From the UHGV virus genome UHGV-0074586: a DNA stretch of 11,801 nt; one strand, given 5' to 3'. Numbering within the stretch: the first letter of the stretch is position 1; every line of letters starts with the position of its first letter. The DNA comes from a virus. Below, piece after piece: positions 1 through 11,278 of this stretch. The notes beneath the pieces were generated by a model, which saw only the letters and a list, made by a program, of their open reading frames with translations, was not told the origin of the DNA and did not search any database. Made by a program: the position numbers and the translations under genes.

Positions 1-1
1 T

Positions 2-145
2 GAAAAAATGGGATTAGTAGGAATATCAGGTGACACTGCATTGAAGGCCACGAATAAAGCTGCCATGCGTCAGGCTCTGAAAGAAGCAATGGTTCCTATC
101 CCGGTATTTTATTGTGTAAATACCCGAGGTATTTATTTTTGGTGA
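2..145 (+). CDS. C-terminal fragment of a hypothetical protein whose ORF enters from beyond the left edge
   Basis: Frame is open from position 2 to a TGA at 143..145 (...MGLVGISGDTALKATNKAAMRQALKEAMVPIPVFYCVNTRGIYFW). No family recognised. An AT-rich hairpin plus T-run overlaps the last codons. Confidence 0.3.
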   Translation, partial: EKMGLVGISGDTALKATNKAAMRQALKEAMVPIPVFYCVNTRGIYFW

Positions 146-264
146 AATAATGATAAGCAAATGAATACAAAGGATATTTATTTTTTCGGTGTCTGCTTGT
201 TCAGTGCTTTTTATGCGGGATATGTGAAGTGGATCCCGATAGCTATTGCTGCCGGGATTATGGG

Positions 265-654
265 TTAGTCAGCGAAGGTTAAGACGAGAATTACCTTAAT
301 GATGTCTGCTACAACAGACACGGCCATAGATAAACCAAAGACAATCCAAGCCATAGAGATGTCTTCACTACCATCGTATAGAGTTCCGTAATCACTGGTG
401 TAAGGCGTAAATGTCGCGCCTTGATACAACAGGTATAAGCTTGAACCATAGAGGATAAATGCAGATATCCCTTGTATTGCTATGATCACTAGAATCATGA
501 AACGAGCTGATCTATGCGCCCAAGCCTGGCTTATTTTTTCTGATAGAGATTTCGCAATAAAAGCATGCGCTAAGCCGTAAATTGTCGAGATTGACAACAT
601 CCCAAAAAAGCTTGCTATAGCGGTTCCAACCATAATCGCCCCTTGCGTGATCAA
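265..654 (-). CDS. small multi-pass inner-membrane protein in the rexB position, immediately downstream of cI; candidate superinfection-exclusion or abortive-infection protein
   Basis: 129-aa ORF with about four hydrophobic helices. Its start overlaps the cI stop in an ATGA arrangement (651..654), implying co-translation with the repressor. Function inferred only from position and topology. Confidence 0.6.
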   Translation of the reverse strand: MITQGAIMVGTAIASFFGMLSISTIYGLAHAFIAKSLSEKISQAWAHRSARFMILVIIAIQGISAFILYGSSLYLLYQGATFTPYTSDYGTLYDGSEDISMAWIVFGLSMAVSVVADIIKVILVLTFAD

Positions 655-1362
655 ACCAGCCTTAGTTTTGTCTCAATTGCAACGCCTATAATCTTGCAGT
701 TTCCATTGATTGGCACGAGAGGCCATGCAGGATTAAGTCCCTTGAGGTATTTATTTCCGCCGTCGATTATCAGCTTCTTGAATGTTGCTTCGTTAGAGTC
801 AGAAAGTTTTGCTATGACCAAGCTGCCGTTGATCGCCTCCCTTCCGGTATCGAAAAGAACGAATGTTCCCTCTGGAATGCTTAACCCAACCGGTGCCGTC
901 ATTGAATCACCTTCCACTTTAAGCCAGAACGCATTACCTTGAATATGCGCGTCAGACTCAAGCCAAACATCTATGTCTTTAATGGTGTATGGTTCGCATG
1001 CTTCACACCACGAGCCAGCCTGGATACTGCTTAACACCGGATACCTCTTTCCTGCTCTGTATTCCCCTGCATACCTTACGTTGGCATCGCTCTTAAGGCT
1101 TTCTGCCTGTTCTGCAACCTTGGCAGCAATTGACTGGCTAAAATCAGCAATTGAGACTTGCAACAGTCGTGCAAAACCAGATGCAACCGTTTAGCGCGTT
1201 TCTGCCATTAAGATAATGCCCTACCGCTCCTTGGGTGATACCCAGTTCATCAGCGATTGAGTATTGGGTTATTCCCAATTCTTTCTTTTTTGACTCATAC
1301 AAAGCCTTAAGCCGCTTAGCGTCTTCGAGCTGTTCTGTCGTCAGTGATTTTTTATTTTCCAT
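651..1362 (-). pseudogene. cI: cI-like repressor (N-terminal HTH plus C-terminal S24/LexA-type autocleavage domain) interrupted by a frameshift near 1185..1191
   Basis: ORF 1144..1362 encodes an HTH domain resembling lambda cI ([26 protein letters not shown]...). ORF 651..1163 in another frame encodes the S24 domain (Ala-Gly site, GDSMTAP serine motif, FKKL lysine motif). Reading by hand, removing one C from the CC at about 1187..1188 restores a continuous ...[23 protein letters not shown]... protein. Confidence 0.75.
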
Positions 1363-1368
1363 AGCTTA

Positions 1369-1397
1369 ATTCTAATAGCTAAGGTACTTAAACTAAA
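1369..1397 (-). promoter_or_regulatory. PRM-like maintenance promoter for cI (leaderless transcript)
   Basis: On the minus strand a TAGAAT -10 hexamer (plus coords 1374..1369) lies 6 nt upstream of the cI ATG at 1362, as in lambda where the cI mRNA starts at the AUG. The -35 (about 1392..1397) is weak and abuts operator A, consistent with an activator-dependent promoter. Confidence 0.4.
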
Positions 1398-1438
1398 AAT
1401 ACCCTGAGTATTGATTGCTTTGAATACCTGTAGTATTC
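1398..1438. promoter_or_regulatory. two palindromic operator sites (OR2-like AATACcctgaGTATT at 1398..1412; OR1-like GAATACctgtaGTATTC at 1422..1438)
   Basis: Two near-perfect inverted repeats sharing the half-site AATAC/GTATT, centres about 25 bp apart, overlapping the -35 and -10 of the rightward promoter. A third site was not found. Confidence 0.6.
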
Positions 1439-1468: not shown

Positions 1469-1663
1469 ATGATTCGAATGACACTTGCCGATTACGCCAA
1501 AATCCATGGACAGGCTAAAGCAGCCAGTGACTTTGGTGTAATCCAGTGCGCTATCAGCAAGGCCATTCTGGCAGGCCGTAACATTATGGTTACGGTAAAG
1601 CCTGATGGCAGTGTGATTGGAGAGGAAGTTCGTCCTTTCCCAAGCAACAAGAAAAACAAATAG
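1469..1663 (+). CDS. cro: Cro repressor
   Basis: 64-aa product ([64 protein letters not shown]) is colinear with lambda Cro. GGAG at 1458..1461 is 7 nt upstream of ATG 1469; the ORF-track start at GTG 1463 is probably too early. Confidence 0.88.
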
Positions 1664-4549: not shown

Positions 4550-4653
4550 TGACCATCTACATCACTGAGCTAATAGCAGGGTTATCGTTACTAATGGTTC
4601 TTACTGTATATATTATTAAGTATATTCTTTATGCGAATAAAAAAACTAATTGA
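4549..4653 (+). CDS. 34-aa hydrophobic single-pass peptide, translationally coupled to the helicase stop
   Basis: ATG 4549 overlaps the helicase TGA (4547..4549) with AGGAGG at 4538..4543. Product MTIYITELIAGLSLLMVLTVYIIKYILYANKKTN. Caveat: AT-rich DNA yields hydrophobic ORFs by chance. Confidence 0.3.
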   Translation: MTIYITELIAGLSLLMVLTVYIIKYILYANKKTN

Positions 4654-5242
4654 TCACGATGAGCTTCTGTCAACATTATCATATGACTCAGAAACAGGAA
4701 TATTTAAATGGCTAAAAACAAATTCAGTAGTAAGAGTAAAAGGTAGTATTGCTGGAGGTGTTAGTGGTGGTTATATATGCATTAGCATAAATAATGTTTT
4801 GTATTATGCGCATAGACTTGCTTGGTTCTATGTATACAAAAAATGGCCTCCTAAGTTTATTGATCATGTAAATGGGAACAGACTTGACAATAGGATTTCA
4901 AATCTAAGACTGGCAACAGAAGAGCAGAATGCAAGAAACATTGTAGGGAATAGGTTAAACACATCCGGTGCGATTGGAGTGTCTTGGTATAAGCCAACTG
5001 GCAGGTGGAAGTCTTATGTTGGTTATAAAAATAAGACAATATCGTTAGGGTATTTCGATAGCAAAGAAGATGCAGCATTCATAGCAGCACTAGCAAGAAA
5101 GAAACTATATGGAACTTATGCGAGTAAAGCACTTAATTGCGAGCATGAGCTTTTATCTCAATTTAATAATGATGAGGATAAACTTGCGGAATATCTTAAG
5201 GAAAAATCTAAAAGGACTCGAAAGCGTGTTAAAAAAAGATAA
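4631..5242 (+). CDS. HNH homing-type endonuclease with C-terminal AP2 DNA-binding domain
   Basis: HNH motif (YYAHRLAWF...IDHVNGNRLDNRISNLRLATEEQNARN) and AP2-like segment (GVSWYKPTGRWKSYVGYKNKTISLGYFDSKEDAAFIAA). The gene sits in a visibly AT-rich island unlike its neighbours. Confidence 0.85.
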   Translation: MRIKKLIDHDELLSTLSYDSETGIFKWLKTNSVVRVKGSIAGGVSGGYICISINNVLYYAHRLAWFYVYKKWPPKFIDHVNGNRLDNRISNLRLATEEQNARNIVGNRLNTSGAIGVSWYKPTGRWKSYVGYKNKTISLGYFDSKEDAAFIAALARKKLYGTYASKALNCEHELLSQFNNDEDKLAEYLKEKSKRTRKRVKKR

Positions 5243-5290: not shown

Positions 5291-5731
5291 ATGAAAAAAC
5301 TAACCTTTGAAATTCGATCTCCGGCACATCAGCAAAACGCTATTCACGCAGTACAGCAAATCCTTCCAGACCCAACCAAGCCAATCGTAGTGATCATTCA
5401 GGAGCGCAACCGCAGCTTAGACCAGAATCGGAAGCTTTGGGCTTGCCTTGGTGACGTCTCTCGTCAGGTTGAATGGCATGGTCGCTGGCTGGATGCAGAA
5501 AGCTGGAAGTGCGTTTTTACAGCAGCATTAAAGCAGCAGGATGTTGTTCCTAACCTTGCCGGGAATGGCTTTGTGGTAATAGGCCAGTCAACCAGCAGGA
5601 TGCGTGTAAGCGAATTTGCGGAGCTATTAGAGCTTATACAGGCATTCGGTACAGAGCGTGGCGTTAAGTGGTCAGACGAAGCGCGACTGGCTCTGGAGTG
5701 GAAAGCGAGATGGGGAGACAGGGCGGCATGA
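5291..5731 (+). CDS. ninB: NinB (Orf-family recombination mediator)
   Basis: 146 aa from ATG 5291 ([34 protein letters not shown]...), essentially lambda NinB as I recall it. Confidence 0.9.
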
Positions 5732-7441: not shown

Positions 7442-7626
7442 ACGCCACAATTCAAACGATACCAGAGCTTCTTATCCAGACACGAGGCAATCAGACCGAA
7501 GTGGCGAGGATGCTTTCCTGCGCAAGAGGAACAGTGCTCAAGTACAACCGAGACAGCAAAGGCGAGCTTCACGTAATAGTTAACGGCGTCCTGATGGTCA
7601 AACAGGGCAAGAGGGGAAGACGATGA
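7438..7626 (+). CDS. ninH: NinH
   Basis: 62 aa with the ...GNQTEVARMLSCARGTVLKY...VIVNGVLMV core matching lambda NinH. ATGA overlaps on both sides. Confidence 0.8.
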   Translation: MNATIQTIPELLIQTRGNQTEVARMLSCARGTVLKYNRDSKGELHVIVNGVLMVKQGKRGRR

Positions 7627-8111
7627 GCATAAGAGAACTAAACCTCACCAAAGAGCAGCACGAGTGGCTGAATGGCTGGCTTGAACTGTGGGGCGCATGG
7701 GTTTATTCAGGTCGTCTGGAAAAGCGCATGAGCAGCGTAATAGCGAAGTTCATGGAGAGCGTAGAGCCGGGAAGAGTTATGACAAGGCCAATGTGCAATG
7801 ATGATGATGGAATGTTGATTTCTCAGGTCGTCGATTCCGTCATGTACATTGACAAGAAAGCCTTTGGAATCCTCCTCAGCTACTACGCTCATGGCTCTTC
7901 CAAGCACGCCATTGCATCTTACTATCATCGCGTCGCAAGACCTCGCAAGATGTTATGCCGTGGCGGCGGGCGCATTCAAAAACCATCGCTCGCAACCTGT
8001 CGACGGGAAGTTGACGAAATCCTTAATGCCTCGTTGTTTATGATTTACCCGGTTCTGGATAGTGCGTTTAAAAACCGGAAACGTGTAGAGAAAATTAAAC
8101 ATGTAGCATAG
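7623..8111 (+). CDS. Q-like late-gene antiterminator (non-lambda Q type)
   Basis: 162 aa, last gene before the lysis region. WGAW...RPMCNDDDGMLIS...YYAHG motifs resemble the Q proteins of 933W/82-type phages, not lambda Q. Assigned from memory and position. Confidence 0.65.
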   Translation: MSIRELNLTKEQHEWLNGWLELWGAWVYSGRLEKRMSSVIAKFMESVEPGRVMTRPMCNDDDGMLISQVVDSVMYIDKKAFGILLSYYAHGSSKHAIASYYHRVARPRKMLCRGGGRIQKPSLATCRREVDEILNASLFMIYPVLDSAFKNRKRVEKIKHVA

Positions 8112-8202: not shown

Positions 8203-8277
8203 GGGTCAGTCGTATAAAGGTCATTACTGAAGGCTGTTAACCTTCTTATCGTGGTTCGAGTCCACGCTGTCCCGCCA
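8203..8277 (+). tRNA. tRNA-Asn (anticodon GUU), phage-encoded
   Basis: Hand-folded cloverleaf: 7-bp acceptor stem with one T-T mismatch, perfect anticodon stem GAAGG/CCTTC with loop CTGTTAA, perfect T-arm CGTGG-TTCGAGT-CCACG, encoded CCA. The D-stem has only 3 pairs. Confidence 0.6.
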
Positions 8278-8282
8278 AATAT

Positions 8283-8358
8283 GCTGGTTTAGCTCCAATG
8301 GTAGAGCAGTCGCCTTGTAAGCGAATGGGTAGCGGTTCAAGTCCGTTAACCAGCACCA
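8283..8358 (+). tRNA. tRNA-Thr (anticodon UGU), phage-encoded
   Basis: Hand-folded cloverleaf: perfect acceptor stem GCTGGTT/AACCAGC, D-arm GCTC-CAATGGTA-GAGC, anticodon loop CTTGTAA, T-arm AGCGG-TTCAAGT-CCGTT, discriminator A and CCA. Confidence 0.7.
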
Positions 8359-8519
8359 TAACTGAGCCGTAGCCACTGGCTATCCTGAATTCATCAGTGA
8401 TAGTTATGCTGCGGCCTTCTACACATGACCTTCGTGAAAGCGGGTGGTTCAATTCTGCTGCCTTCTTCACGTTAAAAGAGGAATTAGGCTTCGAAAATGC
8501 AAAAACTTGCAAAAATGAC

Positions 8520-8548
8520 TTGAAAACGAGTTTTGAAACTGCATAATT
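8520..8548 (+). promoter_or_regulatory. sigma70-like promoter (TTGAAA, 16-bp spacer, CATAAT) preceded by phased A-tracts
   Basis: -35 at 8520..8525, -10 at 8542..8547 with a TG just upstream. The preceding 40 bp holds repeated TGCAAAAA/TTGAAAAC A-tracts at roughly helical phasing (8492..8526). Confidence 0.35.
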
Positions 8549-8630
8549 CCTATATGCTCGGACGTCAAAGGCGAAAGAGCTTACCCACCAGCGAAGATGC
8601 CTTGTGCGGAGCGGTGGGAAACACATTCAA

Positions 8631-8658
8631 GCCCTTGCAGAAATGCAGGGGCTTTTTT
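8631..8658 (+). terminator. strong rho-independent terminator in the leader upstream of the insertion operon
   Basis: 9-bp stem GCCCTTGCA/TGCAGGGGC (one G-U pair) with GAAA tetraloop, then TTTTTT. It lies 30 nt upstream of the first operon ATG and inside the ORF-track 5' extension that starts at TTG 8533. Confidence 0.7.
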
Positions 8659-8688
8659 ATTGGCTCAGTGCCACCAGGTGAACACCGT

Positions 8689-9240
8689 ATGCACACGGCG
8701 ATCATTTGCGCTTCCGGACCTTCCCTCACCCACGACGACTGCCAGAAAGCCATTGGCGCTGGATTACCCGTTATTGCGGTGAATTCTTCATGGCGCGCGG
8801 TGCCGGGATGCTCTCACATTTACGCGGGTGATCTGCGCTGGTGGGATGTGAACATTCCCGCGCTGCCCGATGGCCCCGAACGCTGGTCATGTAACCGGAG
8901 AGCACACACCCGATACGGCGTGAGCCTCTTCCCGACAGATACCAGCGGCACATTCAATTCGGGGCAGAGAGCAATCCTGTTCGCTCACTGGCTGGGTGCC
9001 AGTAGCATCATCCTGCTGGGCTTCGATTGCTCAATCTCAAACGGTAGTCACTGGCACGGCGATCACACAGTCCTCGATAACCCGACAGCAGCGAACGTAA
9101 AGCGCTGGCATGGCGAGTTTGCCCGGGTTGCGGCGCAGCTGCGTGGAAGCGTCAATATCATCAACAGCAGCCGCCAGACGGCGCTTAATTGCTTTCGTCG
9201 CTTACCTCTTGAAGCTGCGATCAGCGAGGTTACATGCTGA
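8689..9240 (+). CDS. hypothetical protein with Cst/GT42-like (DUF115/MptE-like) CMP-ulosonate transferase-fold signatures
   Basis: 183 aa from ATG 8689 (AGGTGA 7 nt upstream). IICASGPSL...PVIAVNSSW and FNSGQRAILFAHWLGASSIILLGFDCSISNGSHWHGDH parallel the GNGPSL, RCN, TSG...LGY...LSGIDFY and SHYIGH motifs of Campylobacter Cst-type sialyltransferases as I recall them. Fold-level inference only. Confidence 0.45.
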   Translation: MHTAIICASGPSLTHDDCQKAIGAGLPVIAVNSSWRAVPGCSHIYAGDLRWWDVNIPALPDGPERWSCNRRAHTRYGVSLFPTDTSGTFNSGQRAILFAHWLGASSIILLGFDCSISNGSHWHGDHTVLDNPTAANVKRWHGEFARVAAQLRGSVNIINSSRQTALNCFRRLPLEAAISEVTC

Positions 9241-10175
9241 ATCCTCCGATTTACATCGATGGCATGCTGGGAATGGGAGATACCATTTACCAGCGCGCTT
9301 TCGTCAAACAACTGCCTGCTGGGACATTCATTAAGACGGCATGGCCGGAGCTTTACGAAGATCTGCCGGTGAAAGTTGTCCGAAGTGACACCACGCTCAG
9401 AACGCAGCGTAAAAATGAGTTTCGCAGTTCGGCAAAGTTTTATCCGCCGCCATCGCCACGACAGACGAAGCGAATATTTTACGGACCGTATGATCTGCGG
9501 CGCGGTTCGATATTTGATGCGATGCGACGCCAGTTCGGCGTAACGCCAGCAGCGCTTGATTTGCCATCCTTTGGCCCGTCGCAGTTTACGCACCAAAAGC
9601 CGATCGCCGTTATCCGTCCGGCAACGGTTCGTTCTGAATGGCGTAGCGACTCCCGAAACCCTGACCCCGATTACCTCCTGCGCGCATCGAGAATCCTGCG
9701 GAAACATTTCTGCGTGATTAGCGTTGCTGATTTGCAGGACGGGGAAGAGTGGCTGGTGGGCGAAGAACCAGAGGCGGATCTGAAAATGCACGCTGGCGAG
9801 CTCAATATCAAAGAGCTGATGCGCCTGGTTGAGCATGCCGCTGTCGTGGTTACGCCTGTTGGCTGGGCGCTGCCCGCTGCCATTGCGTACAAAACACCTG
9901 TTTACGTTGTCGCTGGTGGGCGCGGTGGGCATAACGCTCCCGAGATAGTCACCGATCCGGCGATGGATTTATCCCGCGTTGGCTGGGCAATCCCGGACAA
10001 TTATTGTCGCTGCGAAGCGTGGGATCACCATTGCGACAAACGCATCTTCAACTTTGATTCAAAATTCGAGACATGGCTGAATGAAGTCGTTTTATCAGGA
10101 ACTGAACAGCGGGCTGGTATTCCTCCCGGAGCTGGGCATCGGTCGTTATCCGGTTCCGGCATCACGCCCGTATGA
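9234..10175 (+). CDS. hypothetical protein with glycosyltransferase family 9 (ADP-heptose:LPS heptosyltransferase)-like fold; 3' boundary uncertain
   Basis: ATG overlaps the upstream stop (ATGCTGA). N-terminal IYIDGMLGMGDTIYQRAFVKQL and C-terminal ELNIKELMRLVEHAAVVVTPVGWALPAAIAYKTPVYVVAGG follow the GT9 pattern, but the canonical DTGPMHLAAA motif is replaced by TPVGWALPAAIA. The ORF runs 95 nt into the next gene. Confidence 0.45.
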   Translation: MLNPPIYIDGMLGMGDTIYQRAFVKQLPAGTFIKTAWPELYEDLPVKVVRSDTTLRTQRKNEFRSSAKFYPPPSPRQTKRIFYGPYDLRRGSIFDAMRRQFGVTPAALDLPSFGPSQFTHQKPIAVIRPATVRSEWRSDSRNPDPDYLLRASRILRKHFCVISVADLQDGEEWLVGEEPEADLKMHAGELNIKELMRLVEHAAVVVTPVGWALPAAIAYKTPVYVVAGGRGGHNAPEIVTDPAMDLSRVGWAIPDNYCRCEAWDHHCDKRIFNFDSKFETWLNEVVLSGTEQRAGIPPGAGHRSLSGSGITPV

Positions 10176-10690
10176 CGAGCAGTATTTCGCGAAGTATCAG
10201 CAGCTTGCCGACACCGAAACGGGCAGAGCCTTAACGCAATCCCGTATTGAGCTGGTGGCGCGCCATTTTCACGGTCCTGTTCTCGACGTTGGTATCGGTG
10301 CCGGTCAGTTCGTCTCTACCCGACCGGGAACGCTTGGGTATGACGTTAATCCGGCTGGTATCGCCTGGCTGAACGAGCGGGGCGCATTCGCTGACCTCTA
10401 GTCAGGGGCGCGCGCTGACGATGTGGGATGTCCTGGAGCACATCGACGAGCCGGAGCTGGCGGTACAGCAGGCTACAGAGTTTGTTTTCGTGTCGATCCC
10501 CATTTTTACCGATGCCGGAGACATTCTTCGCTCGCACCATTTCAGGAAGAACGAGCACATCTGGTATTTCACTGACGACGGTATTAAGCGCTGGTTTGCA
10601 GAGCAGGGCTTCGAATGCGCTGAACAGAACACAATCGAATGCCAGTTAGGGCGTAAGGGCGTCGCTTCGTACGCTTTCCGCCGCGTTTAG
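10081..10690 (+). pseudogene. class I SAM-dependent methyltransferase split by a frameshift near 10395..10402
   Basis: ORF 10081..10401 carries motif I (VLDVGIGAGQF) and an acidic beta-2 end (GYDVNP). ORF 10421..10690 in another frame carries the DVLEH motif. The frame upstream of 10421 reads ...SSQGRALTMWDVLEH, so one indel just before the TAG at 10399..10401 would restore a single protein of about 200 aa. Confidence 0.6.
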
Positions 10691-10954: not shown

Positions 10955-11278
10955 ATGAAGATGCCAGAAAAACATGACCTGTTAGCCGCCATTCTCGCGG
11001 CAAAGGAACAAGGCATCGGGGCAATCCTTGCGTTTGCAATGGCGTACCTTCGCGGCAGATATAATGGCGGTGCGTTTACAAAAACAGTAATCGACGCAAC
11101 GATGTGCGCCATTATCGCCTGGTTCATTCGTGACCTTCTCGACTTCGCCGGACTAAGTAGCAATCTCGCTTATATAACGAGCGTGTTCATCGGCTACATC
11201 GGTACTGACTCGATTGGTTCGCTTATCAAACGCTTCGCTGCTAAAAAAGCCGGAGTAGAAGATGGTGGAAATCAATAA
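10955..11278 (+). CDS. S: holin S (S107/S105 dual-start class I holin)
   Basis: 107 aa, essentially lambda S as I recall it. Met1-Lys2-Met3 dual-start motif at 10955..10963 and a CCCC...GGG stem upstream. Confidence 0.95.

Follow-up and report, generated by a model that had tools for sequence, protein, structure and literature searches.

The slot behind the repressor gene of a prophage is transcribed in every lysogen, and it has already yielded RexAB and BstA. Which gene occupies this slot in the phage analysed here, and what might its product do? The slot behind prophage cI has been called a 'hotspot of mosaic diversity', in which rexAB and bstA are found (PMC8585504). The window of our study, i.e. 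the whole stretch of viral DNA that was analysed (UHGV-0074586), contained 11,801 nucleotides. An earlier note, made from the letters of the window, had described in this position a small four-helix membrane protein, translated together with the repressor and possibly concerned with the exclusion of phages. In our study, the gene was found to have been known as an ORF since the annotation of coliphage HK620 (2001) and to have been labelled 'unknown' ever since. It is present in the tractable model phages HK620, mEpX2, HK630, and HK140.

Identity and reading frame of hkaS

The ORF listing contained an uninterrupted ORF of 129 aa, read from a TTG, at 265..654 on the minus strand; as the earlier note had described it, the ORF is directly downstream of the repressor gene and on the same strand. 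Judged by homology, it is a genuine gene, the hkaS gene of coliphage HK620. The HK620 record places hkaS (AAK28867, 2001; product 'unknown'; 369 nt) between cI and tIMM/OL3-OL1/pL. The HkaS protein of the window was 97-98% identical to that of HK620, and the identity of hkaS was 97-99% across HK620 and 15 other phage records. The region 103-1500 of the window showed 98-99% identity to the immunity regions in 16 phage records, which include HK620, mEpX2, HF4s, HK630, HK140, two Stx2c-converting phages, and phi296/phi367. The hkaS region of E. coli VCSW5 was 100% identical to the window. Residues 8-129 of the ORF matched positions 1-122 of the 122 positions of the PHROG 6534 profile ('unknown function') with E = 1.2e-78. 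Residue 14 of the window HkaS (codon at 592-594, in helix 1) was serine, and the corresponding residue was alanine in HK620 and in 80 of 80 IMG/VR copies (A14S).

The start codon was found to differ from the one proposed in the earlier note, which had put the start at 654 and had described an ATGA overlap with the cI stop. Bases 654..651 read TTGA, and the TTG at 654..652 (minus strand), which overlaps the cI stop in this way, was not conserved between lineages. The conserved start was the ATG at 633, which gives a protein of 122 aa, not 129. The ATG and a purine-rich Shine-Dalgarno sequence (AAGGGG, AAGGA or AAAGGA) were kept in every lineage compared; the window contained AAGGGG at 644..639 (minus strand), as read from the sequence. 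The Salmonella lineage contained an in-frame TAA immediately upstream of the hkaS ATG, and the Hafnia lineage has its cI stop in frame with hkaS. Since the TTG was not conserved and the ATG with its Shine-Dalgarno sequence was kept in all lineages, hkaS was assigned to 265..633 (minus strand; homology and cross-lineage start comparison), with 122 aa and a TAA stop at 267..265. The junction with cI at 634..654 (minus strand), which was read from the sequence and compared among five lineages, contained a spacer of 17 nt at 634..650. The cI-hkaS gap was 17-20 nt in the other loci and 17-19 nt in 77 IMG/VR loci.

Repressor gene and quality of the contig

The cI gene, of the HK620 immunity type, was located by Pfam and alignment at 651..1362 (minus strand), with its TGA stop at 653..651. 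The intact cI assumed earlier was not found in the window: a 5-bp deletion splits the gene into an N-terminal HTH ORF of 72 aa with the HTH_3 domain (1144..1362, minus strand) and a C-terminal Peptidase_S24 ORF of 170 aa (651..1163, minus strand), both identified with Pfam. The alignment with HK620, HF4s, and E. coli VCSW5 showed that the nucleotides GTTGA are missing between 1189 and 1188. The cI gene was intact in E. coli VCSW5 (238 aa) and in 77 of 79 IMG/VR loci.

The left end of the window, nucleotides 1..102 (plus strand), was foreign DNA that matched an ATP-grasp gene from the Clostridium relative Enterocloster aldenensis at 100% identity; the 100% match to this gene (NZ_BAABZL010000001) extended over window 1-123. 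The phage and the Enterocloster parts have exactly one 21-mer in common (103..123), GGTATTTTATTGTGTAAATAC, which consists of half of OL1 and the spacer, and OL1 is thereby cut in half. Nucleotides 1-102 were present in no complete E. coli genome searched, and in 80 of 80 IMG/VR loci the match to the window started at exactly base 103. These observations suggest that the left end is probably an assembly chimera of a k = 21 de Bruijn graph in a gut metagenome contig. A biological loss of the left arm of the prophage (PL/N) was considered and rejected, because the join at 103 is chimeric and the loss is only apparent.

A second 5-bp deletion was found at 10400, where ACGCC is missing; it splits a methyltransferase gene that is a single CDS of 204 aa in E. 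coli I3. Both deletions (cI 1188/1189 and methyltransferase 10400) were frameshifting, and neither was located within a repeat. Since two such deletions and a chimeric end occur in one contig, the lesion in cI may well be a sequence artefact; it could otherwise be a real pseudogenisation.

The split methyltransferase gene (Methyltransf_23, 10081-10690) is part of a cargo region at 8203-10690, between the antiterminator gene Q (7623-8111) and the holin gene S (10955-11278), which is the stx position of the Stx phages. The cargo also contained tRNA-Asn (8203-8277), tRNA-Thr (8283-8358), a gene for an MptE-like protein (about 8689-9240), and an ORF of 313 aa without a Pfam match (9234-10175). Among the 5426 complete E. 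coli genomes, just 4 contained it nearly in full, and the cassette may serve to modify glycans or the surface. Elsewhere in the window, a probable homing endonuclease of 203 aa, with HNH_3 and AP2 domains, is encoded at 4631-5242, as an insertion that separates the replication gene P from ninB.

Anatomy of the probable cI-hkaS transcript

On the minus strand, no sigma-70-like promoter and no terminator-like site were found between the start of cI and the stop of hkaS. A stable stem-loop was present at 233..258 (minus strand), 9 nt past the hkaS stop, with a folding energy of -13.7 kcal/mol (z = -4.05) and no U-tract. A post-stop hairpin was found in four lineages, 9-22 nt after the stop, with energies from -13.7 to -18.5 kcal/mol and z from -2.8 to -5.4. 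The hairpins of the Salmonella lineage, locus L007, and the Hafnia lineage (-16 to -18.5 kcal/mol) occupied the same position and were devoid of a U-tract, and their sequences were unrelated. The hairpin coordinates were about 5381-5421 in locus L003, about 5383-5412 in L007, and about 1832-1859 in L009. A comparison of the window with the Hafnia lineage showed one G-U pair of the hairpin turned into an A-U pair. The hairpin at 233..258 is the probable 3' end, or a stabiliser, of the cI-hkaS transcript.

The HK620 authors annotated a terminator, tIMM, which corresponds by homology to 153..183 (minus strand) of the window. The simple terminator scan did not detect tIMM at 153-183, and it is not a convincing intrinsic terminator.

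Because cI and hkaS lie on the same strand, are separated by 17 nt without a promoter or terminator between them, and are followed by a hairpin after the hkaS stop, we infer that hkaS is expressed from the repressor transcript. The arrangement points to a bicistronic cI-hkaS RNA in lysogens (PRM/PRE operon), which would end or be stabilised at the hairpin. The hkaS gene would be the distal cistron of this operon, translated from its own Shine-Dalgarno sequence.

Evolution of hkaS and cI

The protein identity between lineages was 85-95% for cI and 52-82% for HkaS. The synonymous divergence between HK620 and the Hafnia lineage was 0.73 in cI and 0.67 in hkaS, and by this equal divergence the two genes have been inherited as one block. 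The dN/dS ratio was 0.02-0.03 in cI and 0.13-0.30 in hkaS, where the synonymous sites are near saturation. Judged by these ratios, hkaS is under purifying selection, and its protein is changing about four times faster than cI. The length of HkaS was 122 aa, without indels, across lineages down to 52% identity, and the ORF of 122 aa was intact in 80 of 80 IMG/VR loci.

A small family without annotation, which includes a few truncated variants (77 and 111 aa), might be expected if hkaS were a chance ORF or a decaying remnant. However, the dN/dS of hkaS, the constant length, the 80 intact loci, the conserved Shine-Dalgarno sequence, and the confident structure prediction all argue against this explanation, which we consider hardly credible; it is effectively refuted by the conservation data. 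On the dN/dS ratio, the 80 of 80 intact loci, and the full-length PHROG 6534 match, hkaS is more than a chance ORF.

Predicted structure and topology of HkaS

The AlphaFold2 model of HkaS, computed from an alignment of 7 sequences, had a pLDDT of 92.3. It contained helices at residues 2-29, 41-73, and 89-121, an interfacial helix of 7 residues at 31-37, and a beta-hairpin at 78-86. The Kyte-Doolittle hydropathy plot showed three peaks. The hydropathy and the model both predict a small, very hydrophobic multi-pass membrane protein, in agreement with the earlier description; the number of membrane-spanning helices, given there as four, is three according to the model and the peaks. Helix 1 was also considered as a cleavable signal peptide, and this was rejected: the A-H-A motif was not conserved in other lineages, and a basic n-region was not present.

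Conservation was highest in loop 1 (residues 28-44), which was basic with a net charge of +3, and lowest in loop 2 (residues 73-92), which was acidic with a net charge of -4, Tyr/Gly-rich, and contained the beta-hairpin. With these charges, the positive-inside rule gives an N-out/C-in orientation, and HkaS is predicted to cross the inner membrane three times, from a periplasmic N-terminus to a cytoplasmic C-terminus. The mean pairwise identity of HkaS was 71% in the cytoplasmic loop, 56-62% in the helices, and 51% in the periplasmic loop. The invariant residues include G3, S8, G11, K33, W38, H40, R44, Q54, S65, Y67, Y70, D110, K113, and a C-terminal ILVLT-A; the polar or charged Q54, D110, and K113 are located inside helices. 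The C-terminus reads ...LVLTFAD, without a basic tail, and the protein was devoid of a soluble domain.

These features bear on the possibility that HkaS acts in abortive infection as an effector like RexB or a holin, i.e. an oligomeric channel or lesion that would depolarise the membrane upon perturbation by a phage, either alone or gated by the host. HkaS is small and multi-pass and is encoded in the same slot as rexB; its invariant features include Q54, D110, K113, and, in helix 1, a small-residue motif. The class I holins have three transmembrane helices and an N-out/C-in topology, which is also the topology predicted for HkaS. However, HkaS showed no similarity to RexB (hhalign 0.7%) and none to the S holin of the window; it is predicted to have three helices and not four, and a RexA-like sensor, a soluble domain, and a charged C-terminal tail are all absent. 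An effector of this type is, in our judgement, improbable.

The immunity block and the linkage of hkaS with cI

The left operator region was located at 103..183 (minus strand) with the HK620 feature table (offset 2398). It contained, by homology with HK620, the right half of OL1 at 103..109, truncated by the chimeric join, followed by OL2 at 118..134 and OL3 at 140..156 (all minus strand). Beyond the cI start, OR3-OR2-OR1 with PR and the implied PRM were located at 1373..1438 (HK620 feature table, offset 2403 after the 5-bp deletion), followed by cro at 1469..1663 (plus strand; HK620 feature table). In phage lambda, rexAB occupies the slot between cI and OL/PL. The argument from the rexB position is thus borne out: hkaS is found in the cI-OL/PL slot, as rexAB is in lambda and bstA in BTP1 (PMC8585504).

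The loci compared belonged to E. coli, Salmonella, and Hafnia lineages and to one lineage without organism assignment. In every locus examined, hkaS was found directly behind a repressor with HTH_3 and Peptidase_S24 domains, on the same strand, so that the conservation next to cI in related prophages, which the earlier note had proposed as a check, was observed. Downstream of hkaS, the loci contained a gap of about 350-490 nt followed by an N-type antiterminator; on the other side of the repressor lay cro, cII, and the replication genes, in divergent orientation. With HK620 as the reference, the block common to 79 of 80 IMG/VR loci began at nutL/pL, took in OL, hkaS, cI, and OR, and stopped where cro ends, and the mosaic break-points were located just outside this nutL/pL-cro block. 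The shared block places hkaS inside the classical immunity region. The immunity module with hkaS was found to occur with podovirus and siphovirus virion modules alike.

Within the HK620-type cI lineage, hkaS was never seen replaced. The related cI lineages (67-75% nucleotide identity) contained an empty slot, or a DUF6932 gene together with an ORF of 310 aa; what fills the slot thus differs from one immunity type to another. One such locus was that of E. coli L6-21 (L016, 943-2351), with a DUF6932 gene and a hypothetical gene of 310 aa behind cI; the cI of L6-21 matched the initial 402 bases of the query cI at 75% nucleotide identity. The two genes are a possible two-gene defence cargo.

A linkage of this kind could mean that HkaS is part of the lysis-lysogeny control of the phage. 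Made from PRE/PRM with cI, HkaS would work at the membrane, perhaps through FtsH/HflKC or induction signalling, and would stabilise the establishment or maintenance of lysogeny. The strict 1:1 linkage with the cI lineage, the equal synonymous divergence, the lack of any replacement, and the conserved cytoplasmic face are all consistent with such a role. The linkage is, however, explained more simply by the position inside the immunity block: whichever gene lies in the cI-OL interval is locked in this block, so the 1:1 linkage needs no functional explanation. In addition, the related cI lineages work without hkaS, and HF4s and some E. coli prophages have truncated copies. A role in lysogeny control is therefore rather doubtful.

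Family and distribution of HkaS

When 5.8 billion proteins were searched with a word index, no more than 12 clusters turned up, the most distant at 52% identity; a profile HMM run exhaustively against 1.84 billion representatives, clustered at 50% identity, gave just 2 matches. In neither protein set were relatives found outside this locus; among the sequences searched there was no homologue of any kind elsewhere, and thus no housekeeping membrane protein, the kinship that the earlier note had named as evidence against its proposal. The members came from Escherichia, Salmonella, Enterobacter, and Hafnia, and all sources label them 'hypothetical'. As far as these searches reach, HkaS forms an orphan family that occurs in Enterobacterales only. 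The Pfam, NCBIfam, and PADLOC (PADLOC-DB 2.0.0) scans assigned HkaS to no family; the lone line in Pfam was TssN with E = 0.06, under the threshold. A sequence profile search of the PDB found nothing, a fold search of the model against BFVD and the PDB gave no significant match, and hmmscan against all PHROGs found nothing but PHROG 6534. The databases and the literature searched give no function for the family; in this literature no paper pairs hkaS with HK620, and the papers on mEpX2 are not functional studies.

The hkaS gene was present in 146 of 5426 complete E. coli genomes (2.7%), Stx2c phages included, and cI at an identity of at least 95% was found in the same number of complete E. coli genomes (146). 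In HF4s (L002, 2663-3031), which is an isolated phage, hkaS was frameshifted by the loss of 1 nt in an A-run. Truncated HkaS variants of 77 aa and 111 aa (clusters P0031-P0041) were found in a minority of E. coli genomes and were rare. The frameshift in HF4s and the truncated variants suggest that hkaS is dispensable for phage growth.

The distribution of the gene may also be read as that of a lysogenic-conversion protein without a role in defence, which would modulate a host transporter, a sensor or a property of the envelope, as Bor and Lom do. The position of hkaS implies expression with the repressor, and the gene is carried by 2.7% of the complete E. coli genomes, including those with Stx2c phages. 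The loop KISQAW-H--ARF is the part most conserved across Escherichia, Salmonella, Enterobacter, and Hafnia, as expected if it contacts a conserved host partner. HkaS showed no homology to any host pathway, and otherwise nothing specific was found against a conversion function, which we consider unlikely.

Proposed function of HkaS

The reading that we favour, tentatively and by analogy, is that HkaS is a protein of the inner membrane, expressed in the lysogen, which may exclude superinfecting phages by acting within the membrane. HkaS would be made with cI in the lysogen from the shared transcript and would insert in the inner membrane in the N-out/C-in orientation. There it would benefit the lysogen by excluding superinfecting phages, and it would do so by blocking or destabilising the conduit through which the DNA of the incoming phage enters, or the host proteins of the inner membrane that such phages use. 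Since a soluble sensing domain and a partner gene are both absent, the action is most likely within the plane of the membrane.

Several observations stand against exclusion. No annotation gives HkaS any function, and all sources describe it as hypothetical. The PADLOC, NCBIfam, and Pfam scans gave no match, and no likeness in sequence or fold to SieA, RexB or holins was found. The expected contact surface of an injection block, the periplasmic loop, is the region with the lowest conservation, and the highly conserved cytoplasmic loop is no less compatible with a conserved partner, of the host or of a phage, at the cytoplasmic face. The module with hkaS accompanies both podovirus and siphovirus virion modules, which means that the gene cannot be matched to a single injection apparatus.

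A bolder version of the defence reading, which seems unlikely, is that HkaS is the sole component of a prophage defence that has gone unrecognised. HkaS would then gate the membrane against phage DNA or trigger abortive infection, and it would do by another, unrelated means what rex does in the lambda immunity operon. In a variant of the defence reading, the conserved cytoplasmic loop might dock on a membrane machine of the host, for instance FtsH/HflKC or one of the PTS permeases that serve DNA entry.

If HkaS excludes phages, it would be among the smallest stand-alone defence proteins and would be relevant to the host range of phages in E. coli phage therapy. If it does not, hkaS would be another conserved orphan that rides in an immunity cassette.

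Comparison with known systems

HkaS had been described as unlike RexB, and our searches agree: no PF15968 match was found at E <= 1, where lambda RexB itself scored 8.5e-92, and the hhalign probability was 0.7%. A RexA-like partner was likewise absent, as stated earlier, since nothing but 17 nt separates hkaS from cI. Both RexB and HkaS (the latter by prediction) are small multi-pass proteins of the inner membrane, encoded distally in the cI operon before OL/PL. Lambda RexB contains 144 aa and four transmembrane helices and has RexA as a partner, whereas HkaS contains 122 aa and three predicted helices and has no partner. An internal promoter like PLIT of rexB was not seen for hkaS in the promoter scan.

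The class I holins (lambda S, PF05106) differ from HkaS in that no holin match was found for HkaS in Pfam or PHROG, and hkaS is located in the immunity region and not in the lysis cassette. The hhalign probability between HkaS and the profile of the S holin of the window was 0.2%.

BstA of the Salmonella prophage BTP1 is encoded directly downstream of cI and presumably shares its promoter (PMC8585504). The genetic architecture behind cI is the same for hkaS, but HkaS is a predicted membrane protein without a match to any model of PADLOC-DB 2.0.0.

SieA of P22 is an inner-membrane protein of 162-164 aa with three predicted transmembrane domains, which blocks DNA delivery via the ejection proteins (PMC10883804). 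SieA and HkaS are both stand-alone, small proteins with three predicted transmembrane segments and little soluble mass, and both are expressed from the prophage, as far as can be inferred for HkaS. However, the hhalign probability between the two was 0.3%, and sieA has its own promoter and is located in the immI/tail region. The P22 type was the SieA compared directly, and no other PHROG matched HkaS. By these profile comparisons, HkaS is unrelated to RexB, SieA, and holins.

HK97 gp15 and T4 Imm are small inner-membrane proteins that block the entry of DNA without a partner gene. Both are listed in PMC11436027. HkaS resembles them in size class, in its predicted membrane location, and in the absence of a partner gene, whereas gp15 and Imm belong to other families (the PHROG scan of HkaS gave 6534 only) and occupy other genomic positions. 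HkaS is a sequence-unrelated addition to the accessory genes of the repressor operon, and its mode of action would be that of P22 SieA, HK97 gp15, and T4 Imm, unlike the sensor-gated type of RexA/RexB.
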